From Elusimicrobiota bacterium (lineage in GTDB: Bacteria > Elusimicrobiota > UBA8919), in contig JBDRIG010000112.1 of NCBI GenBank assembly GCA_043816185.1, positions 1-42,800 on the forward strand: DNA of 42,800 bases, given 5' to 3'. The notes under the pieces are model-generated. The model was given only the letters and a program-made list of their open reading frames with translations, searched no databases and was not told the origin of the DNA. Positions 4,178 through 42,326 of the stretch are shown one piece after another (positions within the stretch are counted from its first letter, which is position 1; every line of letters starts with the position of its first letter). A program made the position numbers and the translations under genes.

Positions 4178-4191
4178 TAACAATTCTCCTA

Positions 4192-6850: not shown

Positions 6851-8116
6851 TCAATTTTTCAAATTTTTCAATTTTTCAAAAATTTTATAAATACATACCG
6901 ATGTAAAAATAAATAAATATGGCATGGTGGGCAATTGATATCTGGGGCCAGTCTCAAAAGTAATATGTCCGGTAAAATAGATTAAAATTAAAATTAAAAT
7001 TACAGAGTTCTGCCAGTTTTTTCTGGACAAAACTATTCCACCAAATGCAAGAATTAAAAAAATACCGTGCAATAATAAAAGTCCTGAACGAATAAAAATA
7101 TAAAAATAATTTTTTTCTGACAAATATTCAGATATAGATTTATCCACACCAAATATAGAGGAATGACTTGTCCACCAAAATCTTGGTAATCTTTTGATTA
7201 AAAGTAAAATATAATTCTTAAAATTTGCTCGTATTAGTTTTATGCCTTCTTGTTTACATTTTTTCTCCCGTTCTATATCAGGAGATCTTTTCGATATAAA
7301 TATTTCTTGTTCTGGATAATTTTCTGATAACTTAAGAATTTTTTCAAAACTTTCATTATATGTTAAGCCGCTTGCCATGTTCCCGGCTATAAACAAACCC
7401 CCGCCTATCCCAATGCTACATGGTTCAATGGTTTCAAATAAACGATAGTTACGAATAGACCATGGAAGCACAATAAGTATAAATGCAATCAAAAATATGA
7501 ACCACTGAATGAACCGCTGAAGATAATTTTTTCTTCCGATAATTATTATTGAAAGTAAAACAACAAATGGAAACAATATTGTCACTGGTCGTGTTAAAGT
7601 AGCAAATCCGAGAAAAATACCACAACCAATAAAATACACAATTTTTGTTTTTTGAAACCACTTGATAAACAAAAAAATAGAAACAATAAATAAGAATGTA
7701 AAGAGTGTTTCTGACAATAATAACCCGGTATATACAATTAAAACAGGATAAAATGCTATTAGCCATGCAGAAAGATTCGCAATTCTTTCGTCAAAAATTT
7801 CTTTTGCAAGATAATATAAGATAACACAGGTTAAAGCGTCTAAAATTGCTTGAAAAACCCTAACCATTATGTAACTATGTCCGAAAATAAAATAAATAAG
7901 ACTCAAGAAAAAAGGATAGACGGGTGGCCTTATCGGCGTTGGTATATGAGGTTTTATTGAAAAACCATTACCAGTTATCAAATTATATGCAATGGCATCG
8001 TATCCAATCTGATCGTTGGTAAGAATTTTTTCCTGTGGGAAAATAAAGATATATCCGATTCTCAAAATAAAAGATACGAATAAAATCAGCAAAAGCGTCT
8101 TTGTATTATTTTTCAT
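6851..8116 (-). CDS. GT-C glycosyltransferase, family 39/83 (ArnT/PMT_2-like)
   Basis: Multi-TM ORF with the typical first-loop region ILTNDQIGYDAIAYNLITGNGFS and PPVYPFFLSLIYFIFG. The ATG at 8116 (MKNNTK) overlaps the upstream TGA as ATGA. The maximal ORF extends to 8167. Confidence 0.8.
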   Translation of the reverse strand: MKNNTKTLLLILFVSFILRIGYIFIFPQEKILTNDQIGYDAIAYNLITGNGFSIKPHIPTPIRPPVYPFFLSLIYFIFGHSYIMVRVFQAILDALTCVILYYLAKEIFDERIANLSAWLIAFYPVLIVYTGLLLSETLFTFLFIVSIFLFIKWFQKTKIVYFIGCGIFLGFATLTRPVTILFPFVVLLSIIIIGRKNYLQRFIQWFIFLIAFILIVLPWSIRNYRLFETIEPCSIGIGGGLFIAGNMASGLTYNESFEKILKLSENYPEQEIFISKRSPDIEREKKCKQEGIKLIRANFKNYILLLIKRLPRFWWTSHSSIFGVDKSISEYLSEKNYFYIFIRSGLLLLHGIFLILAFGGIVLSRKNWQNSVILILILIYFTGHITFETGPRYQLPTMPYLFIFTSVCIYKIFEKLKNLKN

Positions 8117-8644
8117 ATTCCATTTTTTGTAAAAACGAATTCGTTGCAACCATAACCGCCACTGCATGTTTTTAATTTTTCAAGAACAAACCCTCTATTT
8201 CTAAAAAACTTAAAAATTTCTTCCGGTTTGGCGACTTCAAACGGCCAGCCACCAACCCAATTAACAACATCACTCCACGGTGACATCCCTCTGTTTTTTT
8301 TGTAATTCTTCCAAGTAGAAAACGGTCTGAAATAAAAAAAATCGCGAATCATTGTCGGCAACCAGATTCTAACAAAAACAGGCAATAAAATCAACGATTT
8401 AAGTTCGCGCGTGCATTCAACACTTTGCACGTCATAATCAAACGAGTGAACATTTTTTTGATTCCAATTTCATTGCGGCAAGTGAAAAAAGACCGCTTCC
8501 CGAACCAATATCAAGAAAACTTTCCCCCTCAAGATTGCCAATATCCAACATTTCACAAAGAGATTTGACCGCCTGAATTATGCAATTCTCGTTAAGATAT
8601 TTAAGGAAACTTTTCCAATTTTTTCCGAATTCAAAATGTTTCAT
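8113..8644 (-). pseudogene. Frameshifted, and apparently internally deleted, class I SAM-dependent methyltransferase
   Basis: ORFs 8438-8644 (MKHFEFGKNW...FLDIGSGSGLFSLAA...KKCSLV*) and 8113-8430 (...SFDYDVQSVECTRELK...RGMSPWSDVVNWVGGWPFE...GCNEFVF) are two halves of one methyltransferase. The mRNA reads TCA-A7-TGTTCAC (T run 8453-8459 on the plus strand). With A6 the frame reads SKNVHSFDYDVQSVEC without interruption. Confidence 0.7.
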
Positions 8645-8649
8645 TTTGA

Positions 8650-9006
8650 TTATTTTCGTATTGCCAACTTTCTCAATATCTCATACATTTTTGAAGGAAT
8701 GTATTTTCTTAAAATAAAATTTGTTACATAACTTCTGAAAGAAATATAGCAAGTTTTTATTTTGTTAAACAGCGAAATCTCTATCATAAATTTAAAAAAT
8801 CTTTTTTTATAGCGAAATCGCTGAAATTTTGTAACAAAATAACTTATATAACCCGACGGATAAATATAATCCGTTGTACGAACAAACTGCTTGTACTGTT
8901 TATATGAACTGAAGTCCTGATGAAAAGAGAATGTTGACATCTGAACAATTGCATAACATTTTTTTACATGTTCTTTTGTAAGCCATTTAATGTTTTTTTT
9001 TGTCAA
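8650..9006 (-). pseudogene. Detached C-terminal tail of the radical SAM gene immediately upstream, separated by a +1 frameshift in an A9 run
   Basis: The ORF begins at a TTG inside the A9 tract (T run 8993-9001 on the plus strand). With A8 the upstream protein would read ...FNMPIDKKNIKWLTKEH.... The tail carries TKFQRFRYKKRFFKFMIEISLF, which matches ISELRMRTQFWYFPIDMVLI in paralog 4. Confidence 0.65.
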
Positions 9007-10231
9007 TTGGCATATTAAACTTTCCCCAGTCGTCGAGGGTTGATGGTGGAATGTATCCGTATTCTTTTACCAACAGATTGAATATTGATGTACCAGGCAA
9101 CGGTGCCAGATTAGACATCGTAATAGCAATATAAGGGTTATTTTTTGAAATATTTTCAATTACACTAGAAGTTGCTTCAATATCTTTTTCTGTCTCTGTA
9201 GGGAAACAGTTCATAAAATTCAACCTGTGTGGAATTTTATACTCTCTCATTTTATCTATTGTGCGAAATATCTGATCTATCGTAATATCTTTGGTTATTA
9301 TTTCATCTAACAATCTCTGTGATCCTGATTCCGCTCCAAAAAGAAGGCAGATACATCCAGATTTTTTCAGTAGTTCTAAAAATTCATTGCCATATTTTTT
9401 GACTGCCATGTCAAATGTATTGAAACGGCAGTAGGCCTTCCATCGGATTTGTAGGTTTTTTTTAATTATGATATTCAATATCTCATAGCCCCTTGTAGCA
9501 TCAATGAAAAATTCATCTTCATATATAAAATCATAGTTCAGAATATTATACTTTTTGTAATAGTATTCTATTTCCGCAACCACATTTTCAGCAGATTTCT
9601 GACGATATTTCCTTTTATGAAAGGCAACACTGTAGCAAAAACCGCAACGGTAAGGACATCCTCGAGATGTATGTATCGAAATCGTAGATGTTTTGGAAAT
9701 AAAGTATTCGCCGAATAAATGATAAGGCAAATCAGTGTCAATGTTATCTATATTAATCAGTTGTCTAGGAGGATTTGTTATTACTCTGCCTTCACTATTT
9801 TTATAAGCAATACCTTTTACCGAAGATAAATTCCTTTTTTCCAAAAGAGCAATCGCGAGTTCTTTAGAGGTTTCTTCCCCTTCACCTATTACGACAATAT
9901 CAACCAATTTGTTCTGAAGTGTCTGTTCCGTAAGCAGCGATGGATGTACACCACCCAGAATTATAGGAATTGTTTTTTTATATTCTTTAATTCTTTTTGC
10001 AATTTTTAAGCCATCTGTAATCATATTTCCTGTAAGCATACTTATACCGACGAAAAGATAATCCTCGCATCTGATTTTATTTATTGACTCAATTCCAAGA
10101 TGCAATAATGATACATCCAATCCGGTTTGAATCAACGCTCTGGCAACATAAAGCAGTCCCATCGGGAAACTAAATCCTCTTCCCTTGTTTCCTGAATACA
10201 CTAAAAGTACTTTTGGTTTTGATAAAGACAT
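8987..10231 (-). CDS. B12-binding-domain radical SAM protein, paralog 2 (N-terminal 414 aa; the C-terminal tail is frameshifted away)
   Basis: Carries ILGGVHPSLLT and SRGCPYRCGFC. It ends ...DDWGKFNMPIDKKKH* inside a poly(A) run. The paralogs are 490-508 aa, and this ORF plus the 118-aa tail would reach about that size. Confidence 0.85.
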   Translation of the reverse strand: MSLSKPKVLLVYSGNKGRGFSFPMGLLYVARALIQTGLDVSLLHLGIESINKIRCEDYLFVGISMLTGNMITDGLKIAKRIKEYKKTIPIILGGVHPSLLTEQTLQNKLVDIVVIGEGEETSKELAIALLEKRNLSSVKGIAYKNSEGRVITNPPRQLINIDNIDTDLPYHLFGEYFISKTSTISIHTSRGCPYRCGFCYSVAFHKRKYRQKSAENVVAEIEYYYKKYNILNYDFIYEDEFFIDATRGYEILNIIIKKNLQIRWKAYCRFNTFDMAVKKYGNEFLELLKKSGCICLLFGAESGSQRLLDEIITKDITIDQIFRTIDKMREYKIPHRLNFMNCFPTETEKDIEATSSVIENISKNNPYIAITMSNLAPLPGTSIFNLLVKEYGYIPPSTLDDWGKFNMPIDKKKH

Positions 10232-10325: not shown

Positions 10326-11792
10326 TTAACTTACTTGCCGTTTTCCGGCGATAAAATCTTTCAAATCTCTTATTACTGGACTGTAATTTATTAGTTTATG
10401 CAAAAACTCAATTTGATAAATTTTTGATAAAATTATTGCAAAAACTCTTGGTACGCCTATAACCAAAAATTTTTTTTGATAGTATTTTTGTTGAAGTTGC
10501 CAAGATATTTTGTTGCCTATTAGGAAAAGTCTTTTTCGCTCTTTAACTGATAACTCCGGAGTTTCAAAAATAGGAATGTTTAATCGTGAGTTTGCGTCGT
10601 TTAAATAGTTAGAAGGATGAAAAACAAAATAATTATTTTTTATTACCCAGTCGTAAAGTTCGGTTTTGGGATATGGTGTTATATGGTAAAATTTTACATC
10701 TTCAACTGGATATTTTTTTGCGAGTTCAAATGAGCGTTCAATATCTTCAACTGTTTCGTTTGGCGAACCGATGAGAAAGAAAAGCATCACGGAAAATCCG
10801 AGTTCAGTGGTGTCCTTTATGGCGGTGTCAATGTCTTTTAGTGTCTCGCCTTTCTTTATGATTTGCAGAATTTTATCGGTTCCTGCCTCAACGCCGAAAG
10901 CAATAGTTTTAAAACCGACTTCTTTCATCTTTTCCAACAATTCTCTATTAACCTTATCAGCACGGATGCCGTTTCCACATCCAAGTACAAGTTCAGTCAT
11001 TACGGATTCTTTTAATAAATCGCAGATTTTATTTACCCGATCTGCTAAAAGAGTAAAATTATCATCCGCAAACCAGAAAGTTCTGTAGCCCTTGTCATAC
11101 CAGTATTTAATCTCTCTGATTATGTTTTCCGGACTTCTATATCTGAATTTTTTCCCGATAGCGGACTGCACCGGACAATAAATACAACTGAATGGACAAC
11201 CTCTTGAAGATACTATAGATATGTCTTTTATCGGGGTTGGTGCATTTTTATACGGGTATTTAAGTAGTTCAAATTTATCGTAAGTCGGGAAGGGGATTGA
11301 ATCTAAATCTGAAATAAACGCCCGTTCACCGTTAAAGATTATTTCTCCGTCGGTTCTAAAAATTAGACCTTTTATTTTGTCAAGTTCAATCCCGCTGCAT
11401 ATCTCTACAATCGTCTGTTCTCCTTCTAATACAATTCCGTAGTCAATGCCGTTACAAGATTTTAGTGTTTCCTCTCTGAAAAGCGAAACATGTGGTCCGC
11501 CAACAACTATTTTTATATCTTTAAACTTTTTTTTTAGTCCGTTGATTTTTTCATAACTTTCAAGATAACGGTATGTCATTAGTGAAATTCCGATTAAATC
11601 CGGTCTGAAATTTTCAATCTTTTTGTAAAGGTCGTTTTCTTTATATCCAAGACTCATATCCAAAATATCATATTCAATGTTGTTATATTTTAGAAATTCC
11701 GCAATATAACCCAAACCCGCAAGTATTTTCGGAACTTTGAATATACTTTTATCATATGAAAAGTTCAAAAGCAGTACCTTATTGTAACGCAT
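10326..11792 (-). CDS. B12-binding-domain radical SAM protein, paralog 3
   Basis: Carries VVGGPHVSLF and SRGCPFSCIYC. The track start at 11807 is a TTG. The ATG at 11792 (MRYNKVLLL) overlaps the upstream gene by 14 nt. Confidence 0.9.
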   Translation of the reverse strand: MRYNKVLLLNFSYDKSIFKVPKILAGLGYIAEFLKYNNIEYDILDMSLGYKENDLYKKIENFRPDLIGISLMTYRYLESYEKINGLKKKFKDIKIVVGGPHVSLFREETLKSCNGIDYGIVLEGEQTIVEICSGIELDKIKGLIFRTDGEIIFNGERAFISDLDSIPFPTYDKFELLKYPYKNAPTPIKDISIVSSRGCPFSCIYCPVQSAIGKKFRYRSPENIIREIKYWYDKGYRTFWFADDNFTLLADRVNKICDLLKESVMTELVLGCGNGIRADKVNRELLEKMKEVGFKTIAFGVEAGTDKILQIIKKGETLKDIDTAIKDTTELGFSVMLFFLIGSPNETVEDIERSFELAKKYPVEDVKFYHITPYPKTELYDWVIKNNYFVFHPSNYLNDANSRLNIPIFETPELSVKERKRLFLIGNKISWQLQQKYYQKKFLVIGVPRVFAIILSKIYQIEFLHKLINYSPVIRDLKDFIAGKRQVS

Positions 11793-12909
11793 TGTTTTGT
11801 TGACCAAGTAAATTTATTCCAGGTATTAATCTAGTAAATAATCCATTCCAATGTTTTGCTATTTCTTCAACTTTGTATTTTTTAGCCGATTCACAAGCAT
11901 TTTTGGCAAGGAGATTCCGTTTGTTTTCATCCGACATTAGTTCGTCCATTTTTTTTGACAGCGATTCTATATTACCTGTTGGAACAAGCACGCCGTCCAC
12001 TTCGTTGCTTATAATCTCCGTGGGACCGCTTGGACAGTCAAAACTGACGACGGGAATCCCACACGCCATTGCTTCTATTATGACTATACCAAAACCTTCA
12101 AAACGGGAGGAAAGAACAAATATATCTGACGCAGCAAACTTTTCCGCCGGCTCTTTTACTAATCCCGGTAGTTTAATTCTTTCCTGAAGTTTCAGAGTTG
12201 CAACAATCTTTTCCAAATCGTTTCTTAGTGGTCCCTCGCCATAAATCTCTAAATCCCAATCGGAATGCTTTTCCTTGATCATATCAAATGCCCGAATCAA
12301 AACATCAAATCCTTTTTGATAAGTGAGACGTCCCATTCCTATTATTGTTTTTCTTTCTCCTCTATTTATTATTTTGTCGGTTTTTATAATATTTATCGGA
12401 TTTGGAATCACTATCGCATTACGCCTCATATATCTCGGAAACGATTCTAAAACTCCATTACTCACAGCAACCATTGAAGAAGCAAAAGGGTAAAGTATTA
12501 TTCTCAGTATTTCCCAAAATTTACCTGGAGAATAATATCTGGTATTGACATGTTCCGTGACAATGACTGGCACACCAAGAAATGCTGAAGATAAAATTGT
12601 CAGTACATTTGTCTGGTCAATAAACGAAATAATTACATCGGGTTTTATGGATTTTATTGCATTCCTGATAGTAATAATTTTCGCAATATTTTCTCTAAAT
12701 CTACCGATAATACCGTAATTTTTTCTAATTGCACCCAAATGGTGATGCTTTACGGCAGGATTGAGTTCATAAAACGACTTATTGTTTTCATTGTCAAAAG
12801 TGAATATGTCAACCTGCATGGTTTTTTCAACCCAATAATTTGACAACAAAGATACAATCCTTTCTGCCCCTCCTGCATTCATTGTTGATATTACAATTGC
12901 AATTTTCAT
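11779..12909 (-). CDS. Glycosyltransferase family 4 (GT-B)
   Basis: Carries MKIAIVISTMNAGGAERIV at the N-terminus and the EX7E region SSRFEGFGIVIIEAMACGIPVVSFDCPSGPTEII. Confidence 0.9.
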   Translation of the reverse strand: MKIAIVISTMNAGGAERIVSLLSNYWVEKTMQVDIFTFDNENNKSFYELNPAVKHHHLGAIRKNYGIIGRFRENIAKIITIRNAIKSIKPDVIISFIDQTNVLTILSSAFLGVPVIVTEHVNTRYYSPGKFWEILRIILYPFASSMVAVSNGVLESFPRYMRRNAIVIPNPINIIKTDKIINRGERKTIIGMGRLTYQKGFDVLIRAFDMIKEKHSDWDLEIYGEGPLRNDLEKIVATLKLQERIKLPGLVKEPAEKFAASDIFVLSSRFEGFGIVIIEAMACGIPVVSFDCPSGPTEIISNEVDGVLVPTGNIESLSKKMDELMSDENKRNLLAKNACESAKKYKVEEIAKHWNGLFTRLIPGINLLGQQNNALQ

Positions 12910-12912
12910 AAT

Positions 12913-14439
12913 TTATTTGAATTCTAAGCGTTTTACTTTTTTGAATAACATTATTAAAACCATGTCAATTGGAAAATACCAAAACTGTGTTCTCATTCTC
13001 AATTCAGATATTTTTTGCATTAGTATGAGTAACATCTTCTTTAAATATCTTACCTTTAATGAAAAAATATTTAAATTCACAAAATCCATGTAAAATGAAA
13101 TTTTTCCAACAAAATTTTTATCATTTATCCATATTAGCCTATCAATATTATCAAAACCTGTAAGAATATCCATTGAGTTTGTCCATTCTTCAACAGTTTT
13201 AGGTTGGTTGTAATGATAAATATTTATACATTCGTCATATAGTTCACCTCCGGGATATGGACGAAATATTTGAGGACCAACGATGGACACAATATCCGAA
13301 ATAGATCTTAAACGCCGAATCATTTTTAATGTGCATACTATGTCCAATTTGGTTTCACCGGGGATTCCCATCATAAGTGAAAACGTTGTCCCTATTCCGC
13401 AATTCGTGATAAGTTCCGCAGATTTATATATCTGTTCAACAGTTATGTCCTTTTTCAATTTATTTAAAATTTGTTGTGAGCCGGATTCAGCACCGATTGC
13501 TAAGCGATAACAACCAATGTCCTTTAATTGTATCAGCATATCGCTGTCAACTATTTTTTTATCAAATGCATCCGCCCTGATGCTTGCCATCCATTTAAAA
13601 ACAAGTTTTCTATGTTTAATCTCAGATATAAAATTTTCTATATTTGACCGTTTAATAAAGAAGTCCTCATCAACAAAATCAAAAAAATTTACTGAATAAT
13701 TAGTGATTAGGTGTTCTATCTCATCGCATATTCTTTGCACGGATTTGGTTCTGTATTTTCCAAAAAAGAGGTTTTTATTTGAATTTATGCAAAATGTGCA
13801 TCGATAGGGACATCCGAAACTAGTAAGCATGACCCCGAAATTTACTTCTATTGTTTCCTTACCGCGATAAACAAATCTTCTTTTATATCTGGGGTAGTTG
13901 AAAATATCATAATTAAAATATGGAAGTTCATTCAAATCATGACAAGGTCTCGGTTCAGTTTGGACAAATTTATTATTTTCAAGAAAACACAATCCTTTTA
14001 CTTTAGAAACATCAGATTTATTTTTCAAGGTATGCAACAATTCGTGAGTTGTATGTTCGCCTTCACCGATGCAAACATAATCAACAAACCCCGATTTTAA
14101 AACATCTTCAGGAAAAAGAGAGGAGTGTATCCCACCCCAAATGATAGAGATAAATGGATATCTGGATTTTATATGCTTTGATAGTTGAGACGCATGTGAT
14201 ATCTGCGAAGTCATTACCGAAAAACCAACAAGAATTATTTGATTTGGATTGCTTTTTATGGTATCATCAAACGCTTTGACAGGGTCATCTTCCAAAACCA
14301 TATCAAGTATAGTTGTTTCCCAGCCCTTTGAACAAAGAAAACTTCCAATAGATAATAATCCAGCATATGGATAGGGACTGGATTGCTGTTCTTTTGAATA
14401 ATAAACAGATCTTGGGTTAATTAGTATACAGTCATACAT
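12913..14439 (-). CDS. B12-binding-domain radical SAM protein, paralog 4
   Basis: Carries IWGGIHSSLFP and SFGCPYRCTFC. At 508 aa it retains an intact C-terminal tail. Confidence 0.9.
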   Translation of the reverse strand: MYDCILINPRSVYYSKEQQSSPYPYAGLLSIGSFLCSKGWETTILDMVLEDDPVKAFDDTIKSNPNQIILVGFSVMTSQISHASQLSKHIKSRYPFISIIWGGIHSSLFPEDVLKSGFVDYVCIGEGEHTTHELLHTLKNKSDVSKVKGLCFLENNKFVQTEPRPCHDLNELPYFNYDIFNYPRYKRRFVYRGKETIEVNFGVMLTSFGCPYRCTFCINSNKNLFFGKYRTKSVQRICDEIEHLITNYSVNFFDFVDEDFFIKRSNIENFISEIKHRKLVFKWMASIRADAFDKKIVDSDMLIQLKDIGCYRLAIGAESGSQQILNKLKKDITVEQIYKSAELITNCGIGTTFSLMMGIPGETKLDIVCTLKMIRRLRSISDIVSIVGPQIFRPYPGGELYDECINIYHYNQPKTVEEWTNSMDILTGFDNIDRLIWINDKNFVGKISFYMDFVNLNIFSLKVRYLKKMLLILMQKISELRMRTQFWYFPIDMVLIMLFKKVKRLEFK

Positions 14440-15700: not shown

Positions 15701-17290
15701 CTACTGAACCGTCTGGAGAATCTTGTCTCTTACGAGATTGTATATTTTGTAAACCTCTTCAAGTTTGAATAGTAAGGACAAGCTAATATAGACAGCCAAA
15801 CCTGTCAAAACGGATAGCGATGTCGCCAATATCTTGTAAATAATAATTCCCTCATTCCATGAATTCAAAAATCTCATTGTTATGACTGCGGTGAACCCTG
15901 AAATCGTGGCAAAAACTGCTATCTTCAAAACATCTTTCAGAATTTCCAAACCGTGAATATTACCGATGGACTTTTTTAGAGCGACGAAAAACATAACAGC
16001 GATAATCAAAATATTGCAAGATGAAGATAAAGCAATGCCCGCAGCCGGAGGATTAAGTAATCTGATGAACAAGATATTTCCGACGACAGTTAGTACAATT
16101 GATATTGCAATAATCTTCAAAATCCGACTATATTCGTTCAGTATAAACAATAATTTCGAAAAAATAATAGCGGCATAATAGGAAAATAGTTGAAACGCAT
16201 AGAAAAAAAGTATTTTTGAAGTAACTTCGGTGGCTTCAGCAGTAAAATTTCCCCTCTGAAATAATATGGAAACTATTTGTTTGGAAAAAAACGCAATCAT
16301 TACGGCTATTGGTATGAAAACAAAAGCTGCCATGCGGATACTTAATGCAAGAGTATTCCTCAATTCCTCTATTTTGTTATTAGAAACTTGAATGGAAAAG
16401 TAAGTATACAAAACTACTGGAAGCGACGATATAAATACCGTCAGGGGCATTTGCACGATTTTTTCTGCATATGTCAGTGCCGTAATGCTACCAGCCGGCA
16501 GAAATGCCGCCATATTCCTGTTAATCAAGATTACTATACTCGGAGCCACTGAAATAATCATAAATGTCAGAATATTCTTGCCCAGTTTATTCCCTTTGAA
16601 ATATTTGGTTTCAAAACTGAAAGTATATCTGAATCCCATCTTTTTCAGAATGTACATCAAAACAAATGTCTGCAATATTATGCCTGCAGTATATCCCCAT
16701 ACTATTGCATAGATATTATGTCCTTTTTGGAACAGAACAACGGAGGCAATAATACCGATTGTTATCATAATCTGCGAAACCGCGGGATAAAAAAATATTT
16801 TATACGCATTCAGCACCGAAGTCAAAATGCCTGAAAACCCCATAAAAACAAGCATTAAACTGAGAATTTTTAAAATTCTTGCTGCTGGCCAAATTATGTT
16901 TTCAGAAAGACCGGAGAACAGAATTCTTATTATCTGTTCCGAAAAAACGAAAGTGATAAGTGAGATGCCAAGAAAAATAACTACGAAGTAATTCATCGCA
17001 GTGCTCGCAATTTTATTTGAGTTGTTAATCCCATCATCAAGTGACTTAATTAACATCGGAATAAAGACAATACTGAATGTAGATAATATTATTCCACCAG
17101 CCATTGTTGGCACAGTGAGTGCTGAATAATAGGAGTCCATAGAAACTCCAATGCCGAAACACTTAGCAACAATGACTTCCTTTAATAAACTTATCAGGTT
17201 AGTAAATATGCTTACAATAACCAAAGATATTGATGCTACTGCAATAGTTTTATTAACAGACAATGTTTTTCCCATCCGATTTCCTTTCAA
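15701..17290 (-). CDS. murJ: MurJ/MviN-family (MOP superfamily) lipid-linked glycan flippase
   Basis: 529-aa ORF with about 14 hydrophobic helices and the N-terminal signature LLKEVIVAKCFGIGVSMDSYYSA. Whether its substrate is lipid II or the locus glycan cannot be told from sequence. Confidence 0.8.
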   Translation of the reverse strand: MKGNRMGKTLSVNKTIAVASISLVIVSIFTNLISLLKEVIVAKCFGIGVSMDSYYSALTVPTMAGGIILSTFSIVFIPMLIKSLDDGINNSNKIASTAMNYFVVIFLGISLITFVFSEQIIRILFSGLSENIIWPAARILKILSLMLVFMGFSGILTSVLNAYKIFFYPAVSQIMITIGIIASVVLFQKGHNIYAIVWGYTAGIILQTFVLMYILKKMGFRYTFSFETKYFKGNKLGKNILTFMIISVAPSIVILINRNMAAFLPAGSITALTYAEKIVQMPLTVFISSLPVVLYTYFSIQVSNNKIEELRNTLALSIRMAAFVFIPIAVMIAFFSKQIVSILFQRGNFTAEATEVTSKILFFYAFQLFSYYAAIIFSKLLFILNEYSRILKIIAISIVLTVVGNILFIRLLNPPAAGIALSSSCNILIIAVMFFVALKKSIGNIHGLEILKDVLKIAVFATISGFTAVITMRFLNSWNEGIIIYKILATSLSVLTGLAVYISLSLLFKLEEVYKIYNLVRDKILQTVQ

Positions 17291-31858: not shown

Positions 31859-32106
31859 AATATCTTGCCTTGTATAATAAATTTCAAGATTTGCAGATAA
31901 TCGTTTAAATCAGACTGTTTATAACGATAAACTGGATTACTGTTTAAAACAGTAAATAGATGATATTTTCAGATGACCATATTTGAGATGATTTCGTGGT
32001 GTGACGACGAAGATATATTTTTTACTGACCAGGAAGGAGCAACGCAGAAATCAGCTAAAGATGGTAGTTTCCAAATAGACGGGCAGTTCTGAGCTACAAC
32101 TACGAA

Positions 32107-32173
32107 ACTCGTCGTTTGTGTATTGTGGTAAATATATCACGCTCTTCATTACTCGTCGTTTGCGTATCGTGGT
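32107..32173. repeat. Two copies of a 23-nt direct repeat (21/23 identical) with a 44-nt period, in a 442-nt intergenic region
   Basis: The copies are actcgtcgtttgtgtattgtggt (32107-32129) and actcgtcgtttgcgtatcgtggt (32151-32173). A third tcgtggtg box lies at 31994-32001, next to gacgacgaag, which is an inverted copy of the cgtcgt part. Confidence 0.7.
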
Positions 32174-32300
32174 GAAACGCCTTCGCTATTCGTTCTTTAT
32201 TTCGCTTCAAACCCGTTTTACCAAAACCCACTCGCTTCAAAACTCACTATGTCAAAATTTGTTCTGTCAAAACGATATCTATTTATCACCTTGAGTAGTA

Positions 32301-32909
32301 TCACCACTTTTTGTATTTGCTGGATTTTTTTGCAGTTAAGAATTTATATATAAGATAGACAGCTAAAATCATTATGCCAAGTAATTGTAAGATTTTTAGA
32401 CGTGCAATCATCGTTCCTAAAAGAAGTGGAATGACTCCACAAAAAGGAAAAACATAATCAAGAAAATTTTTTGCACAACCACCTTTCTGAGTTTCATTTT
32501 CAACCAACGGTGGAATACTTAGCAGCGAAATTGCAACAAGTTCTTTTACCACTTTAATTAATACGGCATTGTTAGAATCTTTGACAAGTTTTGTCTCACA
32601 TTGCTTTACAAGTTCGTCAATTCGTTCTTGTTTAATCCCAAGCGAAATTATTGAATTGTATATCTCAGGATTATTTGGCTCTTTTGATAGGGCTTTTTCG
32701 TAGGCATCTTGAGCAAGAAGAAAAAAAGTATTCTCTTTTTCTATGTCACCTTTTATTTCATACGCCTGCCCCAATTTGTGGAGCGCCTGAGGATTTGTTA
32801 TGTCTATTTTTAGTGCTTTTTGGTATTCCGATATAGATAGTTCAATGCTACCCACTTTTTTGTAGACATCACCGTTTTTTATATGAATACCAATATCTTC
32901 ACTATCCAT
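32301..32909 (-). CDS. TPR-repeat protein with a C-terminal membrane anchor
   Basis: 202-aa ORF with TPR-like repeats (YQKALKIDITNPQALHKLGQAYEIKGD, AQDAYEKALSKEPNNPEIYNSI) and then two hydrophobic helices (VFPFCGVIPLLLGTMIA, LLGIMILAVYLIYKFL). Confidence 0.75.
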   Translation of the reverse strand: MDSEDIGIHIKNGDVYKKVGSIELSISEYQKALKIDITNPQALHKLGQAYEIKGDIEKENTFFLLAQDAYEKALSKEPNNPEIYNSIISLGIKQERIDELVKQCETKLVKDSNNAVLIKVVKELVAISLLSIPPLVENETQKGGCAKNFLDYVFPFCGVIPLLLGTMIARLKILQLLGIMILAVYLIYKFLTAKKSSKYKKW

Positions 32910-33160
32910 AAAATAACTCTCACTTTATTTGAGATTATGATGATAGCGACATAAAAACAGACAACAATGATAATTTTGTCTCTTATCGTCGTAATCGCTT
33001 TTTATAAATCACTATAATCAAAATCGTTGATGACCTTTTCTTCTTCGATGAAACCTATTTGAATAACGGTTTTAGTATATAAAATAATTGTTAACAAATC
33101 AAACTAAAAATAAAAAATTTGCTTGTGAGCGACTATAAATCGCCATTCACCTTATTTTAA

Positions 33161-33415
33161 TCGTCGAGCGAAGGAAAAGTTTCTGCAGAAGCTTCCCCCG
33201 ATTTATCGTGACACCTTTTTTTTTAATCGCAGGAGCGAGGGGATTGTTGCAGGGCTTCTCGGCAGGTCGGCATACGCATTCAGCCGACCGAGAGAGAGCG
33301 CTGCCCCTCGAGCAGATAGCGTCCCTGCGAGACAACTCCCGAGCACACTCCACACTACAAACTCTAATGAGGTAAGGTCTGGCAACCATCATGGAGTGGA
33401 TTTTTCTTCGACGAA
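33161..33415. ncRNA. Candidate structured non-coding RNA (~255 nt, GC-rich), family unresolved. The minus strand is favoured only because transcription there is co-directional.
   Basis: This is a GC island in AT-rich DNA: my hand count of 33231-33350 gives 76 G+C out of 120. The ends pair as tcgtcga (33161-33167) with tcgacga (33409-33415), and the stem extends through gaaggaaaa/ttttcttc. Nested internal helices are all Watson-Crick: CACUCC/GGAGUG, GGGA(G)UUGU/ACAAUCCC, GCAGGG/CCCUGC and GGUCGGC/GCCGACC. The ORFs across it (33147-33392 and 33203-33385) look non-coding. Confidence 0.5.
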
Positions 33416-33437
33416 GTCTTTTTGAGAAATAAATTCA

Positions 33438-34313
33438 TTACTCCAAATATGGCTCTACGTGAACAATTACATCTTTAATAAAAGATTTCTCTTTAATTAT
33501 GAATTCCTTTAAATTAGTCGCTATTTCATGTCCTTTTGATACGCTGTAATCCTTATGAACGAATATTGAAACATCTATTATGTAATTCCTTCCAATGGGA
33601 TGCACTCGCAAATTAGAAATTTTTTTTATTTCGGGATATTTTAAAATAAACTCTCTTATTTCCTTTACAAATTTTTCCGAAGGAATAGAATCCATTACTA
33701 TTTTATTGCTCTCGTTCATTATATTCACACCTGTTCTCATAATAAAAATCGATACGACCAAACTTGCAACTGGATCAAAAAAAAGCCATCCCATTCGAGC
33801 ACCCACGATACCAACAAACACACTCAACGACGATAGAACATCTGAACGATGATCGAAAGCATTTGTCTTGATAGCAGGTGAGTTTAAAATATTGCCAACT
33901 TTCAGAGTATATCTGTACAGCACTTCTTTTATTATTATTGTAATTATTGCAGCCCATAAAGCAATAGAATGGGGACGACTGTAATGTTTGTGAATTATGA
34001 TGTGAAAAGCTGAATATCCGATGAAAAAACCTGTCAACAACACAATAATAGAAACAATCCATGAAACAATAACTTCTATGTTTTCATGCCCATATGGATG
34101 TTCGTCATCCTCAGGTTTTTTAGCCATTTTTATACCAAAATAAACAATCGCAGATGTTAATACATCAAAAAGCGAATTGATGGCATCTGCAACCATCGCC
34201 TGACTATGGCCAAAAATCCCAACAAGAAACTTAAATATCAGCAGAATGCTATTTGAAATAAGTCCTATTGTTATGCAAACATATTCGTTTTTGAAATCGA
34301 TTTTTTTTGTCAT
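33438..34313 (-). CDS. Cation diffusion facilitator (CDF) family divalent-metal efflux transporter (CzcD/FieF-like)
   Basis: Carries GHSQAMVADAINSLFDVLTS, DDEHPYGHENIE and DHRSDVLSSL, with six hydrophobic helices and a C-terminal cytoplasmic domain. Confidence 0.9.
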   Translation of the reverse strand: MTKKIDFKNEYVCITIGLISNSILLIFKFLVGIFGHSQAMVADAINSLFDVLTSAIVYFGIKMAKKPEDDEHPYGHENIEVIVSWIVSIIVLLTGFFIGYSAFHIIIHKHYSRPHSIALWAAIITIIIKEVLYRYTLKVGNILNSPAIKTNAFDHRSDVLSSLSVFVGIVGARMGWLFFDPVASLVVSIFIMRTGVNIMNESNKIVMDSIPSEKFVKEIREFILKYPEIKKISNLRVHPIGRNYIIDVSIFVHKDYSVSKGHEIATNLKEFIIKEKSFIKDVIVHVEPYLE

Positions 34314-37088: not shown

Positions 37089-40000
37089 TCAGAATATTAT
37101 GCTAAGAGAAGAGGAAATTTCGAGAGAATAGTAGTTATCCTTTTTTTTCTTTCTATCCATAAAATAAGAACTGCCAGGCATAAGATTGAATCTTAAATTG
37201 TCGGATATAGAAACTGCATAATCGCCAGTTAAATTAATTGAATAAGTTTCAGCATTATTTATATCAATAATTTTATCGTGTGTTTGCGAATATTTTAAAC
37301 TACTGTTTACCGTAAGTCGACTTTGATAATTGTACTGTTTTTTTAATATAAACGGTATTGAAAATGTAGAAGGTTTGGAAACGTCATAGTTGATACCCAA
37401 AGATGCAATTTGTGTTATAGAGTTTTTAGTTATTTTCGGTGTACCGTCAACCTCAAATTCGGTTTTCATCTCGTATCGCGGCGTGAATCGCCAGTTTTGA
37501 TACTTAAGAAATCTGTAACCAGTCTGAAATGCCATAGATTGTACATCACCATCAGCAGTAATTTTATTTTGTTTAATATCTTTTGCAAAAACTTTTGTAG
37601 TACCATACGATGCAAAACAATCAAATCTTTTTATAACATTGAATCTGTAATCATATAGATTTGAAATTGTTTGTTCAAATTTTGTTTTTTCATTAAAGGC
37701 ATAACTATCAATAATTCGCGTTGTATGTCTAAAATTAACAAATGTATCGGACATATATTTTTCAATAAAGAAAAATTTCTCGACACTAGAAACTCCCACA
37801 GTTAAATCAGGCCAATTTAATGTTACTACTCGACTTTGTGTACCTGTTATTTCGTTTTTCTTATCTGTTTGAGAATATGCTGAAGCTACTGTAACTGATT
37901 TTATTGGAGATAAACGACCTCTGAAAGGTAAAAACTCAAAAGGTGAGTATCTAGCATTTCCACGAATAGTATCTGATAAAGTAAAAGATTCTCTTGTCCC
38001 AGTTAGTATGTTTTCTGCTGACAAATTTTTCTCAAGCAATTTTTCTCGCATAAATAATTTATTGTAGATATATTCCGCTTTTTTAACATTTTTATAGCTA
38101 TTGCCATCGACAATCTCGAATGAAGAATTTAATGACAAGGAATTTAATGGTGCAAAATTAATAATATCGTGAGGTGTTAATGAAATAGATATATTGCCAC
38201 TGAATGTTCTAACAACCGTTTTGGTTTCTGGCTCAATATATCCCGTAACAGCTCCATAGAGAGGATCATATCGTACCTCGCTAGACACAACAAGATTATA
38301 TGTCTGTGTTATTTCCGAATTGCAGGATGCTGTGGGAACAAACCATGAAAATATATGCAATGATGTTGAAAGCGAAGCAGTTTGTGAATCGTTTTTTGGA
38401 TAATCTGTTTTTACTTTACCGATAAGTTGTTTTTTTTCACGGGTAACAGAAAACTTATAAGTAGGCGACAAAGACAAATTGGAAAACGGTTTTATTCCGA
38501 ACCAGTCGTTAAGCCAACTTGTTGGCGTAAAAGATGTTCCACCTGAATAATTATCTGAATATGTCTGAAGATACCAACTGGTTGTAAAATTAACCAACTC
38601 AGAAAAATTGATGTTTTTTTTAAGTGGATAACCTTGAAAAGCATCTGTGTGTGAATAAGATGCGGAAAGGTTGTTTGGAATTATATAAAGTTTAAGCGGA
38701 TTTGTGTAATCAAAGGTATTGTTTAATATATTTGTTTCATTATGCTGAATAAGAATGTTTGATTCGGTAATCGACCTTGAATAAGAACAGCCAAGACGAG
38801 GAAATTTTTGAATAGTTAACGATGTTGAACTATTACCAGAAACGGTAGTAACTTTTCCTTCTTCTAAAATTGAAACGAGGTTTAGACTACCAGTTTGGAT
38901 CGCCGAGGGTATTACTGTAACTATTTTTGAAATAGATGTATTTAGCGGTATTGAAATCCAACTTAAAAATTCTGGTTTCAACAACCACAATTGAGGTATA
39001 TTAAAATAACTCGATATTTCTTCGTAATCCCTGTTTGAAATCTGGGTTGTAAGTGTTTGAAAATCACGATTAATAAACTTAAATTTTCCGCCAAAAGTTG
39101 CCCAATTGGGAACAGTAAAATCTGCATTATATCTATTGGCATATCCTGTAATTTTCCACGACTCATCTAAATAAATTTCATCAAGCCATATTTCATCATT
39201 CTCAATCTTTAAACCACTTTGATTTATAATCAATATTTTTATCTGCGATATATTGGTAAGCGATGGATTTCCGACGATGGTTAGTGGCTGACCTCCTACC
39301 TCCATTCTATCAGGTTTTTTGTCCTTATTTAAGTCAACTAATGAAAGTGTGATTTCTCTCCAACCATTCCAATTTGGCACAGTTTTATACTCATAGTATG
39401 CTGATTCTGCACCAAATTGTATAGCAAATGTTGCGTTTTTTGAACCACGACCATCTAAACTACCACCCCACAAATAAAATGTAAGTTTCTTATGTTTCGA
39501 GTAATCTGCAGAACGGGAAAAAACAAATTTTGTTGTTGCAGTGGAACCATTTTCAAGCGTATATTTTAATTGAAGGGATTGCTCTTTTTTGCCATTTAAG
39601 TCGCCATTTTTATCTATAAGTTTATAGAGGTTTTTGAACGTCTCCGGAAAAGTATCATAAAGTGGTGTATACACTGTGTTGTCAATGTTATTTATTGCTG
39701 TAGCTGTCATTTCACCAGTTCCAAATATAGTTGGTTTTTCCCACTTGTTTCCAACCACCGAAATATCCACAAACTGAATACTCCGATAAGAAGAATTACC
39801 ATATGGGGATTTTACATTCAATCTTATTTGTTTCGCCGTCTCCCACGTTGTCACACCACCAAGAGGAATAATAAAATGCTTCCAGCCAGCGGGCCAAGAA
39901 ATATTGTTATATGCAATTCCGCTTTCGTCCTTAAAACCAATCGTTCCGTCGGAATTTGTAAAAGTTGCTATATTAAAACTACCGAGAATACTATCGCTGC

Positions 40001-42305
40001 GTCTTAATACACCGTCTCCATCTAAATCCTCAGTATCAATTTTTCCGTTATCTGCACCTATCAAGGTTACACTTCCATCGGGATGATTAAATGCAATTCC
40101 CGTATCTTCACCTGGATTTACAATACCATCGGAGTTTTTATCCTCAGTATCCATTAATCCATCACTATCGGCATCTTCGTTTAGTGAGCCGATTGAAAAT
40201 GTTATTTCGTCACCAGAATTATCGCCATACATCCAAAAATCTAAAAAAAGTTTCTTTGTGTAGTCGACACCAAGACGAGAAATTGGATAAATAATTGATG
40301 CCTCTTTACTCTGATTGAGTTTATATAAAACATTTAGTATCTGTTGTTTTATGTCCTTTTCTTCCTCTTGTATCGACGGATTTATCTCCACGCGTTTAAC
40401 ATCTACATTCGTCCAACTAACTGCGCTGTTTGCTGTTTGATCGGCAGATATATTCGCAGAATATTTCCACGACTCGGCGTTAGATGACATTGTATCTGCT
40501 TGTTTAATGCCTTCCATGTTTTCAATTAAGGCATTTCCAAAAATGTTCGGGTTTCTAATGCTTGACGCATACTCACCAGAAAAAGATGGTTGAAACGGTA
40601 AATTACTAAACGATGCTTTTGTATCAAACTCCCACACAGAAATACTCTCAGGGCTTGAACGAACATCTGGCGATGTTAAGGGTGTTAAGGGAAAATTATA
40701 CAAAAAAGTAGAACCAAATGAAAAATTATTATAAGGAGCATACTCAACGCGAGTGCCAATAACCGTCTGATCCATTTGCCCCCCAAAAGGCATCCATTCA
40801 TAGGTTATATCGATAAGTGTCGTGTCGTTTATTTTTTCTTCGCTTAAAAAAGTGACAAAACCTGAATCATAATCCATAAAGTAATCAATATCTCTTATTA
40901 ATTGTTTACCATCTATCATGATTTTTTCCGACTGTGGGATTATATTAGGACGCACAAGATATGATTTTGTACGGTATTTGTATTCGGTATAAATTATATA
41001 ATTTCTGGTGGGTGTTGCAGCATACGTATTTTGTGGAAATGGCTCTTTGTCGTTGCCTTCACCATCTGTAAACCTGAAGATTCCCGCTTCAAAATCTACC
41101 TCAATATTGTCAGGATATTTTGCTATTTCAGGTGTATTTTTGAGAGATAAATCCTTAATTCTTAATATAAAATTACTCCTATTATCATCACGAATAACTT
41201 TTGTTCTTCCTATTGAATAATAATTTTTAAGTTCGTAATTAAGCGTTTCTGATTCGTCTTTTATTAGTTTAAATGTTGTAAAAGGCATGTCGTCTTTCAC
41301 TCGAGTTCCGTCTTTTTTTTCATAATCAATGGCAATAATATAATTCTGTCCAATTGATTTTCTAAAAACAATAACACCCCGTTCATAATCAATTGTGTAG
41401 TCATTCCCAGGATACAAAAGGTCGCATGCCGCAGAAAAAGATGAATCACTAACGCCATACTTTGAGACGGTGATTGAGGACGTAAGTATAGTATTGTTTG
41501 TAGCATTTCTGTCGTCAACATATATAATTTCTGTGCCAGGTTTTATTGGAAGATGAGTGGTAGACAAGGCAAGTTTATAATATTTCCGTCTTAAATAAGC
41601 TGTATCATTAATCTCTTTTTTTTCGAAGCTAGTTGAACCACGGAAGCATTTCGTCTCGGTAGTTCCCTTTGTTCTGGAAAACACTCCATAAAAATTCGCT
41701 TTTTTATGTTTTAGTTTCGCCATTGCGCCAAATGCCGCCTTATTGTAAGAGACAAACTCTGTTCCTGGAAGCGAGAGCGTAATATCACCAAATGCTATAT
41801 CTTGAACTAACTCATCGGGGTCACCCTTATAAACAATTGAGATATCTTTTTTATTTTCAACTGTATCGTCGTAATCAATACCAACGGTAATTTTTCTTTT
41901 TACTGTTCCTTTGATACGCATTTGTAATTGTTGGGTAAGCTCAAACCCACTTGGGAATGGTTGGGTTTTTTTATCGTCCCTTTTGTAAAAATATTTTGAA
42001 GATGCAAACTTCATTCTAATAAATTTTCTACCTGAAATTGCAAGTTTTGACTCATATGGAAGTTCTATTCCGTCGGAAAGTATCGCAGGTACGATGGGGC
42101 CAGCTGTAGTAGTTGTGATATCTACTCGGAATGACTTCGGCCTGGTGGTTTCTATTTTTTCTTCCCTGTATTCTTTTTTTTCTTTTTGTTGTCTTATCTG
42201 GTTCCAATCATCAATGTCAAAATCTTCTGCTGAAAGACAGAGAATAAGAGGGCGAGAGAGTAGGAGAGTGAGTAAAAATATGATTTGTGTGATTTGTTTT
42301 TTCAT
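37089..42305 (-). CDS. Giant outer-membrane beta-barrel protein, distantly SprA-like (T9SS translocon family), with an Asp-rich Ca-binding-type insert
   Basis: 1743-aa maximal ORF with ATGs at 42320 and 42305 (MKKQITQIIFLLTLLL signal). The N-terminal block ITVGIDYDDTVENKKDISIVYKGDPDELVQDIAFGDITLSLPGTEFVSYNKAAFGAMAKL...FYGVFSRTKG resembles the SprA N-terminal signature as I recall it. DxDxDG-like repeats (DADSDGLMDTEDKNSDG, DTEDLDGDGV) lie at about 39990-40190. The rest is long, alternating and beta-rich, and the C-terminus is ...LEISSSLSIIF with a terminal Phe (OMP beta-signal). Confidence 0.8.
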   Translation of the reverse strand: MKKQITQIIFLLTLLLSRPLILCLSAEDFDIDDWNQIRQQKEKKEYREEKIETTRPKSFRVDITTTTAGPIVPAILSDGIELPYESKLAISGRKFIRMKFASSKYFYKRDDKKTQPFPSGFELTQQLQMRIKGTVKRKITVGIDYDDTVENKKDISIVYKGDPDELVQDIAFGDITLSLPGTEFVSYNKAAFGAMAKLKHKKANFYGVFSRTKGTTETKCFRGSTSFEKKEINDTAYLRRKYYKLALSTTHLPIKPGTEIIYVDDRNATNNTILTSSITVSKYGVSDSSFSAACDLLYPGNDYTIDYERGVIVFRKSIGQNYIIAIDYEKKDGTRVKDDMPFTTFKLIKDESETLNYELKNYYSIGRTKVIRDDNRSNFILRIKDLSLKNTPEIAKYPDNIEVDFEAGIFRFTDGEGNDKEPFPQNTYAATPTRNYIIYTEYKYRTKSYLVRPNIIPQSEKIMIDGKQLIRDIDYFMDYDSGFVTFLSEEKINDTTLIDITYEWMPFGGQMDQTVIGTRVEYAPYNNFSFGSTFLYNFPLTPLTSPDVRSSPESISVWEFDTKASFSNLPFQPSFSGEYASSIRNPNIFGNALIENMEGIKQADTMSSNAESWKYSANISADQTANSAVSWTNVDVKRVEINPSIQEEEKDIKQQILNVLYKLNQSKEASIIYPISRLGVDYTKKLFLDFWMYGDNSGDEITFSIGSLNEDADSDGLMDTEDKNSDGIVNPGEDTGIAFNHPDGSVTLIGADNGKIDTEDLDGDGVLRRSDSILGSFNIATFTNSDGTIGFKDESGIAYNNISWPAGWKHFIIPLGGVTTWETAKQIRLNVKSPYGNSSYRSIQFVDISVVGNKWEKPTIFGTGEMTATAINNIDNTVYTPLYDTFPETFKNLYKLIDKNGDLNGKKEQSLQLKYTLENGSTATTKFVFSRSADYSKHKKLTFYLWGGSLDGRGSKNATFAIQFGAESAYYEYKTVPNWNGWREITLSLVDLNKDKKPDRMEVGGQPLTIVGNPSLTNISQIKILIINQSGLKIENDEIWLDEIYLDESWKITGYANRYNADFTVPNWATFGGKFKFINRDFQTLTTQISNRDYEEISSYFNIPQLWLLKPEFLSWISIPLNTSISKIVTVIPSAIQTGSLNLVSILEEGKVTTVSGNSSTSLTIQKFPRLGCSYSRSITESNILIQHNETNILNNTFDYTNPLKLYIIPNNLSASYSHTDAFQGYPLKKNINFSELVNFTTSWYLQTYSDNYSGGTSFTPTSWLNDWFGIKPFSNLSLSPTYKFSVTREKKQLIGKVKTDYPKNDSQTASLSTSLHIFSWFVPTASCNSEITQTYNLVVSSEVRYDPLYGAVTGYIEPETKTVVRTFSGNISISLTPHDIINFAPLNSLSLNSSFEIVDGNSYKNVKKAEYIYNKLFMREKLLEKNLSAENILTGTRESFTLSDTIRGNARYSPFEFLPFRGRLSPIKSVTVASAYSQTDKKNEITGTQSRVVTLNWPDLTVGVSSVEKFFFIEKYMSDTFVNFRHTTRIIDSYAFNEKTKFEQTISNLYDYRFNVIKRFDCFASYGTTKVFAKDIKQNKITADGDVQSMAFQTGYRFLKYQNWRFTPRYEMKTEFEVDGTPKITKNSITQIASLGINYDVSKPSTFSIPFILKKQYNYQSRLTVNSSLKYSQTHDKIIDINNAETYSINLTGDYAVSISDNLRFNLMPGSSYFMDRKKKKDNYYSLEISSSLSIIF

Positions 42306-42326
42306 CTGTGCAATCCGCATTTTATT

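Follow-up and report, generated by a model that had tools for sequence, protein, structure and literature searches.

Background

What is the GC-rich block that stands between a cation-efflux gene and the head of a large surface-glycan operon in an otherwise AT-rich genome of the Elusimicrobiota? The question is raised by contig JBDRIG010000112.1 of assembly GCA_043816185.1, whose first 42,800 nucleotides (nt) form the stretch analysed here (the window; positions are those of its forward strand), and it concerns an element of 255 nt at 33161–33415. A sequence-only reading of this stretch had described the element as a closed arrangement of helices and proposed that it might be an unclassified structured RNA. 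We find that the element is a real GC island, that it is non-coding and that no known RNA family matches it, and we tentatively favour the view that it encodes a structured, non-coding RNA of about 255 nt that is specific to this lineage and most likely made from the minus strand. We put the probability of this view at roughly 0.4; the proposal of an unclassified structured RNA is neither shown nor refuted.

Surveys by the Breaker laboratory have found structured RNAs to be enriched in the long GC-rich intergenic regions (GC-IGRs) of AT-rich genomes (PMC11109978, PMC8632094). Such a survey of 50 genomes sorted 4714 GC-rich regions into 2948 known open reading frames (ORFs), 607 low-ranking regions, 427 unnamed regions, 250 mobile or repeat elements, 107 protein-binding candidates, 48 terminator stems and a few hundred credible RNA candidates (PMC11109978, Table 1), and in a 26-genome survey the unnamed class was made up of regions with three or fewer representatives (PMC8632094). 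The element studied here falls in this unnamed class. In the literature on the Elusimicrobiota we found no RNA-specific work, and none that joins Elusimicrobia with RNase P RNA. Should the element prove to be a real RNA, the Elusimicrobiota would gain a structured RNA specific to the lineage, placed where one could study how a very large glycan operon is controlled; a mobile or foreign fragment in decay would be nothing unusual. Without homologues, an excess of GC is not by itself proof of a structured RNA.

A GC-rich, non-coding island

Taken over all of its 120-nt segments, the window has a mean GC content of 32.9% with a standard deviation of 5.4%. The highest segment of all, at 33232–33351, reaches 64.2%, which is 5.8 standard deviations over the mean, and the second-best segment anywhere in the window has 50.8%. 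The GC island is real and is unique within the window. A recount of the core gave exactly the number of G and C bases that the sequence-only reading had reported for it, and the earlier description of the sequence of the whole element matches the letters that we read. The element and its core are:

33161..33415, no strand assigned: the element, 255 nt with 53% GC, its ends set by the terminal stem
33231..33350, no strand assigned: GC-rich core, 76/120 G+C, the strongest GC outlier of the window

The element occurs as a single copy within the window: it shares no repeat longer than 13 nt with the rest of it, the motifs TTCGWCGAA and CACCTT..AATCG do not recur elsewhere in it, and Tandem Repeats Finder found no tandem repeat. 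A non-coding stretch of 64% GC in a genome of 33% GC implies that the stretch has either been kept by selection or arrived recently. An excess of this kind would be expected if a structured RNA were encoded in an AT-rich genome.

That the stretch is indeed non-coding is supported by several lines of evidence, and the earlier judgement that the ORFs across it are implausible as genes stands. The 81-amino-acid (aa) ORF on the minus strand at 33147–33392, which is rich in cysteine and arginine, has a flat GC content at codon positions 1, 2 and 3 (0.49, 0.52 and 0.55, respectively); in the native genes of the window, every one of them, the corresponding values are about 0.40, 0.30 and 0.27. The ORF has no Pfam match, and a phmmer search with it against 1.84 billion representatives gave no match either. 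The six-frame translations of the element were joined into one query, so that homologous elements might be recognised by ORFs called spuriously across them; among 5.8 billion protein clusters this query had no match at E ≤ 10, not even to the window itself. Since none of the six frames has a protein match, the element is not a fragment of any recognisable gene, transposases included. A small protein encoded by the 81-aa ORF is accordingly a reading to which we attach very little weight. The ORF does start with ATG and lies on the same strand as all the other genes, and two co-registered frames are open across the element, but open frames are expected anyway at 53% GC, and no GGAGG-like Shine-Dalgarno sequence was found before the ATG.

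Comparison with known RNA families

All 4227 covariance models of Rfam 15 were searched, at gathering thresholds on the whole window and at E ≤ 10 on segments of 801 and 291 nt. The whole window gave no match at gathering thresholds, the 801-nt search gave nothing overlapping the element, and the 291-nt search, run with the laxest filters, returned only noise, namely fstAT at 13.8 bits (gathering threshold 72) and sno_ncR3 at 12.6 bits (gathering threshold 88). No family was assigned to the element, and nothing beyond these two noise matches appeared at E ≤ 10. ARAGORN found no transfer RNA (tRNA) or transfer-messenger RNA (tmRNA) in the window. The sequence-only reading had excluded RNase P RNA, a cobalamin aptamer, tmRNA, signal recognition particle (SRP) RNA and 6S RNA on the basis of their missing signatures, and the model searches agree with it on each.

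For RNase P RNA, the models RF00010, RF00011, RF00373, RF02357 and RF00009 were all unmatched at E ≤ 10. The element is like an RNase P RNA in being a GC-rich, RNA-like block in an AT-rich genome and in carrying, on the minus strand, the strings GAAGAAAAAUCCACUCC and GCAGAAAC, which faintly resemble the conserved regions CR-I and CR-V. These strings, however, are nothing but the two sides of the helix that extends the terminal stem: the CR-I-like string (33413–33397 on the minus strand) comes directly after the 5' strand of that stem and pairs with the CR-V-like string, with no P2 or P3 between P1 and the supposed P4, and hence the topology of P4 is impossible. Neither a specificity domain (P7–P12) nor the type-T catalytic domain (RF02357) was found in the 255 nt of the element. 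A cobalamin riboswitch was rejected in the same manner, with no match to RF00174, RF01482 or RF01689 at E ≤ 10. GCCACUG is a conserved motif of cobalamin riboswitches, and GCCACTG is not present on either strand of 32910–33437. tmRNA, which would show a tRNA-like domain and a tag reading frame, was rejected with both ARAGORN and Rfam empty, and SRP RNA, which would be marked by a conserved helix 8 motif, and 6S RNA were rejected because no Rfam model matched at E ≤ 10, GGAAGCAG is not present and the fold is branched rather than one long hairpin.

One may still ask whether the element is a divergent or reduced form of a known RNA, such as a minimal RNase P RNA, a cobalamin riboswitch or an antitermination RNA like EAR (eps-associated RNA, RF01735). 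Besides the CR-like strings, this idea can draw on ACCUGCC, which is like part of a B12 box, and on the four B12-binding radical-SAM enzymes encoded in the downstream cluster. Cobalamin riboswitches, though, normally govern the supply of B12 and not the enzymes that use it, and no RNase P, cobalamin, EAR or other model came up at E ≤ 10 even on 291 nt with lax filters. We regard such a reduced RNA as highly improbable, and the links to RNase P and B12 that had been raised tentatively no longer need be considered. With EAR and the other processive-antitermination leaders of polysaccharide operons the element shares its place at the start of a very long glycan operon that runs in one direction; it differs from them in that it has no Rfam match, in that the promoter-like sites lie downstream of it and not upstream, in that the same operon lacks the element in relatives, and in that no NusG paralogue was seen among the Pfam-annotated genes.

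Predicted fold of the element

The helices named by the sequence-only reading, that is, the terminal stem, the CACUCC/GGAGUG domain, the long domain and the two hairpins within it, all occur in the minimum-free-energy (MFE) folds of both strands, and the A9 run that it mentioned was located as well. The parts of the fold are:

33161..33175, no strand assigned: left arm of the terminal stem (TCGTCGAG.GAAGGA), pairing with 33401–33414
33216..33224, no strand assigned: run of T9 on the plus strand and A9 on the minus strand, within an AT-rich patch that breaks up the GC island
33239..33340, no strand assigned: long domain, closed by GGGG.TTGTT+GCAGGG / CCCTGC+GACAA.TCCC and containing two hairpins
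33265..33289, no strand assigned: perfect hairpin of 7 base pairs (bp), GGTCGGC/GCCGACC, with an 11-nt loop, the best-defined local structure
33298..33322, no strand assigned: second inner hairpin, CTGCTC/GGGCAG on the minus strand and GCGCTG/TAGCGT on the plus strand
33346..33398, no strand assigned: hairpin domain closed by CACTCCA/TGGAGTG, with two inner hairpins of 3–4 bp
33401..33414, no strand assigned: right arm of the terminal stem (TTTTTCTTCGACGA), as in the MFE folds

In the MFE folds of both strands the terminal stem consists of TCGTCGA/TCGACGA plus an extension, and the helices that close the long domain are GGG(G).TTGT/ACAA.CCC and GCAGGG/CCCTGC. On the plus strand the hairpin domain at 33346–33398 is followed by TTTTTCTT; the CACTCCA/TGGAGTG stem that precedes this string encloses an interior of 39 nt, in contrast to the loop of 3–8 nt in an intrinsic terminator.

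The MFE is about -86 kcal/mol on either strand. Compared with dinucleotide-preserving shuffles, the element taken exactly at 33161–33415 has folding z-scores of -2.2 on the plus strand and -1.9 on the minus strand, and the region of the central hairpin (33258–33300) has z-scores of -3.1 and -1.8 respectively. The terminal stem, at -15.3 kcal/mol, ranks in the best 0.07% of 20-mer pairs that lie 255 nt apart in the window and in the best 0.2% of GC-matched 20-mer pairs at the same spacing. It is the best single feature of the fold, but suggestive at best, because the end points of the element were chosen so as to maximise the strength of this stem. There are three perfect 7-bp helices in the 255 nt, and by our estimate roughly two would be expected by chance.

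Two earlier statements on the fold need to be narrowed. The helices described as all Watson-Crick are so in the core, but the whole MFE folds contain G-U pairs, 8 of 77 on the plus strand and 7 of 79 on the minus strand (12 ± 3% in shuffles); G-U pairs are equally common on the two strands, in keeping with the earlier remark that they do not decide between them. Likewise, the element had been called highly base-paired, and the helices exist, but the pairing is mostly an effect of composition, with z-scores of only about -1.4 to -2.2.

Gene layout and the favoured reading

All of the non-nested ORFs of at least 110 aa in the window lie on the minus strand, and it is because every gene lies there that the minus strand is favoured for the element. 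Along this strand, two PHP-domain genes and the CDF gene are followed by a spacer of 22 nt, the element, two promoter-like sites and the TPR gene, with these positions:

33438..34313, minus strand: CDF cation-efflux gene, with its stop codon at 33438, 22 nt upstream of the element
33132..33160, minus strand: promoter-like site TTAAAA-17-TATAGT, directly downstream of the element, a consensus match only
33074..33102, minus strand: promoter-like site TTGATT-17-TATACT, a consensus match only
32301..32909, minus strand: TPR gene, with its ATG at 32909, the first gene of a glycan-synthesis cluster of ~31 kb

No promoter-like site was found ahead of the element on the minus strand, and none within 33161–33415. 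The succession of a gene stop, a structured GC-rich block, two promoter-like sites and the next operon supports the RNA reading, which we favour because the element has an excess of GC, lacks a coding signal, folds modestly better than shuffles and occurs as a single copy.

The transcription, strand, fold and function of the element are what we infer, and they can be put together as follows. As the element starts 22 nt past the CDF stop codon with no promoter-like site before it, it would be made as a 3' extension of the CDF transcript. The RNA would then fold into a body of several hairpins closed by the terminal stem, and this body, as a stable structure at the 3' end, may protect or terminate the CDF message and may insulate that message from the promoter or promoters of the glycan cluster immediately downstream. 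Alternatively, it could be released as a small RNA derived from the 3' untranslated region (3'-UTR). A bolder proposal is that the element is the first member of an undescribed class of Elusimicrobiota structured RNAs, with a metal-efflux gene on one side and the start of a 31-kb surface-glycan operon on the other, and acting either as a 3'-UTR-derived regulatory RNA or as an EAR-like leader that governs transcription into the operon; this we think doubtful.

Two kinds of described elements come to mind for comparison. The structured elements of 3'-UTRs, such as the REP-like hairpins that stabilise messenger RNA, resemble the element in standing right after a stop codon and before the next promoter, and in having GC-rich hairpins and no canonical U-tract. 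REP and BIME elements are short, with about 35–40 nt per unit, and multi-copy; the element, in contrast, is 255 nt long, branched and single-copy in the window. The unnamed and low-ranking candidates of the GC-IGR surveys (PMC6429828, PMC8632094, PMC11109978) are like it in being long, non-coding, intergenic GC outliers in AT-rich hosts with no Rfam match and at most three representatives, although theirs is a holding category and not a family, silent on function, and for the element not even a second representative was found.

Relatives of the locus and searches for homologues

The CDF protein is 82% identical to its counterpart in an Elusimicrobiota metagenome-assembled genome, and further relatives are labelled likewise. 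Five loci with a CDF orthologue (L001, L009–L011 and L034) were compared, at 76–82% identity. The gene that follows CDF after 0–100 nt codes for an HD-domain protein in L009–L011, is a 252-aa ORF in L001 and codes for a Cupin protein in L034, and no GC island is found downstream of CDF in any of the five. Seven distinct TPR orthologues, at 64–68% identity, led to twelve contigs (among them L012–L018 and L030–L033) with the same operon beginning TPR-Wzy_C; the gene upstream of TPR in these relatives is a secretin, a UPF0164 or another gene, with a spacer of 0–123 nt and without the element. With relatives lacking the element on either side, all 528 nt of the spacer are specific to this contig. 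The genes next to CDF vary among the relatives as well, so a break of gene order at this point is unremarkable in itself.

Searches over ~197 kb of related sequence, by blastn, nhmmer and a covariance model of the 120-nt core, recovered only the window itself. An exact-pattern scan of the JGI metagenomes with the central hairpin, its loop left free, gave one chance match on a contig of 70% GC (L019), six pattern scans of IMG/VR with sequences of the element gave nothing related, and blastn against phage and plasmid collections gave short chance matches only.

In one sample, relatives of the two flanking genes are found on separate contigs (L012, Logan SRR29054607_3587, and L009, SRR29054607_63), which shows that in that relative the TPR operon does not adjoin CDF. 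The contig with the TPR operon, L012, stops only 889 nt upstream of the TPR gene.

Repeats within and around the element

A direct repeat was found by local alignment at the left side of the element:

33147..33195, plus strand: copy 1, AT-richer, CACCTT(T)nAATCG..GAGCGARGG..GCAG.GCTTC
33212..33258, plus strand: copy 2, GC-richer

The outer copy (copy 1) is thus the AT-richer one. The repeat has an alignment score of 38 as against 14.8 ± 2.8 in shuffles, none of 1000 of which reached 38; the same repeat unit scores up to 34 against unrelated AT-rich coding sequence in the window. A nested-copy model, in which an inner element was inserted into an older and decayed copy of itself, was rejected: the similarity of the left halves does not extend to the right ones, for which 920 of 1000 shuffles score as well.

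There is also a direct repeat of 25 nt at 33038–33062 and 33401–33425 (TTCTTCTTCGATGAAACCTATTTGA and TTTTTCTTCGACGAAGTCTTTTTGA), identical at 20 of 25 positions and offset by 363 nt. The right-hand copy runs across the right end of the element, and the left-hand one is found 100 nt beyond the left end; the significance of this repeat is marginal, at an estimated 0.05 or so in a region of 600 nt. The loop and 3' arm of the central hairpin (33272–33291, ATACGCATTCAGCCGACCGA) recur in the same sense within murJ at 16802–16819, with 18 of 20 bases alike and one exact copy of the 11-nt loop at 16802–16812. A plus-strand transcript of the element would be antisense to the murJ messenger RNA at 16802–16819. 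With a blast E-value of 0.42 within the window, we treat this match as probably due to chance.

Weighing the RNA reading against its rivals

Several results weigh against an RNA. The fold is only marginally above what is expected of sequences of matched composition. For 33150–33425 the z-scores in dinucleotide shuffles are -1.4 on the plus strand and -1.6 on the minus strand, the ensemble is no less diverse than those of shuffles (z +0.1 and +0.4), and the MFE structure, with a frequency of about 1e-4, is markedly unlike the centroid. The fraction of G-U pairs is alike on both strands and at the level of shuffles, so that no strand can be called from it, and neither MFE fold has a hairpin with a GNRA or UUCG tetraloop as its cap. 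No intrinsic terminator-like site, defined as a hairpin with a loop of 3–8 nt followed by a U-tract, was found on either strand of 32800–33600. Among relatives, 12 distinct loci (17 contigs) with the flanking CDF or TPR gene were compared, and none has the element; the related loci, the pattern scans of metagenomes and viruses, and the blastn searches of phages and plasmids yielded no homologue and hence no covariation evidence, which we take as a weak negative. Among GC-rich intergenic regions at large, moreover, the mobile or repeat class is as large as that of the credible RNA candidates, and most such regions remain unnamed (PMC11109978).

The main rival of the RNA reading is that a piece of mobile or foreign non-coding DNA landed at this gene junction and left the element as its remnant, either as something like a miniature inverted-repeat transposable element (MITE) or as the end of a lost insertion. 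It would then be a recent arrival that has not yet decayed to the AT richness of its host, without RNA function and at most supplying a promoter region to its neighbour. We consider this somewhat unlikely. It agrees with the rank of mobile and repeat elements as the largest assigned class among GC-rich intergenic regions (PMC11109978), and it agrees with the relatives, in which there is no element downstream of CDF or upstream of the TPR operon and for which the 528-nt spacer is specific to our contig; a second contig-specific insert lies on the other side of the TPR gene. The ends of the element are imperfect inverted repeats (TCGTCGA..GAAG.AAAA), and the outer copy of the internal direct repeat is AT-richer, as if decaying. 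On the other hand, the element is single-copy in the 42.8 kb, no target-site duplication abuts 33161 and 33415 (the nearest direct repeat, at 33038–33062 and 33401–33425, is not at the ends), no transposase fragment is present in any frame, and the phage, plasmid and viral collections gave no match. The inverted repeat consists of 7 perfect bp and 8 more across two gaps, and while its duplex energy falls in the top 0.2% of GC-matched pairs, its alignment score of 15 is not significant (12.2 ± 2.0 by chance). The MITEs of bacteria (Correia, RUP, ERIC, PATE) share with the element a size class of 100–400 nt, an intergenic position, inverted-repeat ends, folding into long hairpins and a site that is empty in relatives. 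Known bacterial MITEs usually match the GC content of their host, and the element differs from them in a GC content far above that of its host, in having neither a target-site duplication nor a second copy in the window, and in its gapped terminal repeats.

Two other explanations dispense with both RNA and transposition. The contig could be an assembly artefact that joins, through the element, two loci of one genome or a stray fragment, and the gene order compared with relatives does break on both sides exactly at the element. A foreign piece of about 200 nt, however, would need two chimeric joins, and the neighbours of CDF differ among the relatives in any case (HD, Cupin or another ORF). The like composition of the two flanks (32.7% and 33.2% GC, with the same pattern of GC at codon positions) and the absence of any repeat longer than 13 nt that ties the element to the rest of the window make a misassembly improbable. 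A regulatory segment acting at the level of DNA on the glycan cluster is likewise a long shot, whether it be an inverton bounded by terminal inverted repeats, as found upstream of capsule loci in Bacteroides, or a protein-binding region upstream of the operon promoter. The element does lie directly upstream of promoter-like sites at the head of the 31-kb surface-glycan cluster, as a segment of about 250 bp bounded by inverted repeats, and invertons of 30–750 bp are reportedly found at such loci. Yet there is no promoter-like site inside the segment and no recombinase gene among the Pfam-annotated genes of the window, the inverted repeats are short (7 perfect bp) and gapped, with about 650 such pairs expected by chance in the window by our estimate, and both forms of this model leave the GC richness unexplained.

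The glycan cluster and other features of the window

The cluster headed by the TPR gene runs in one direction over ~31 kb (1828–32909, minus strand). It comprises two Wzy_C genes, many glycosyltransferases, sugar-nucleotide enzymes, MurJ, two PMT_2 genes and a split transketolase, together with a weak YfhO-like gene that is under the Pfam cut-off. Four paralogous B12-binding radical-SAM genes are included, at 2768–4240, 8987–10231, 10326–11807 and 12913–14439. The ORFs at 8113–8430 and 8650–9006 belong to no Pfam family, and the 1743-aa ORF at 37089–42320 (minus strand) has no Pfam domain above threshold, with only a sub-threshold CBM_11 at residues 916–999.

A second spacer that is peculiar to this contig, of ~440 nt, lies between TPR and the first Wzy_C gene at 31859–32300; in relatives the two genes overlap or abut. 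Rfam gave no match in this spacer, and its folding z-scores (+1 to +2) show no signal; it contains a direct repeat of 26 nt, ACTCGTCGTTTGYGTATYGTGGTRAA, at 32107–32132 and 32151–32176, where none is expected by chance. In relatives the same glycan operon is placed after the type IV pilus genes pilMNOPQ, an adjacency that hints at glycosylation of pilin or of a surface protein.

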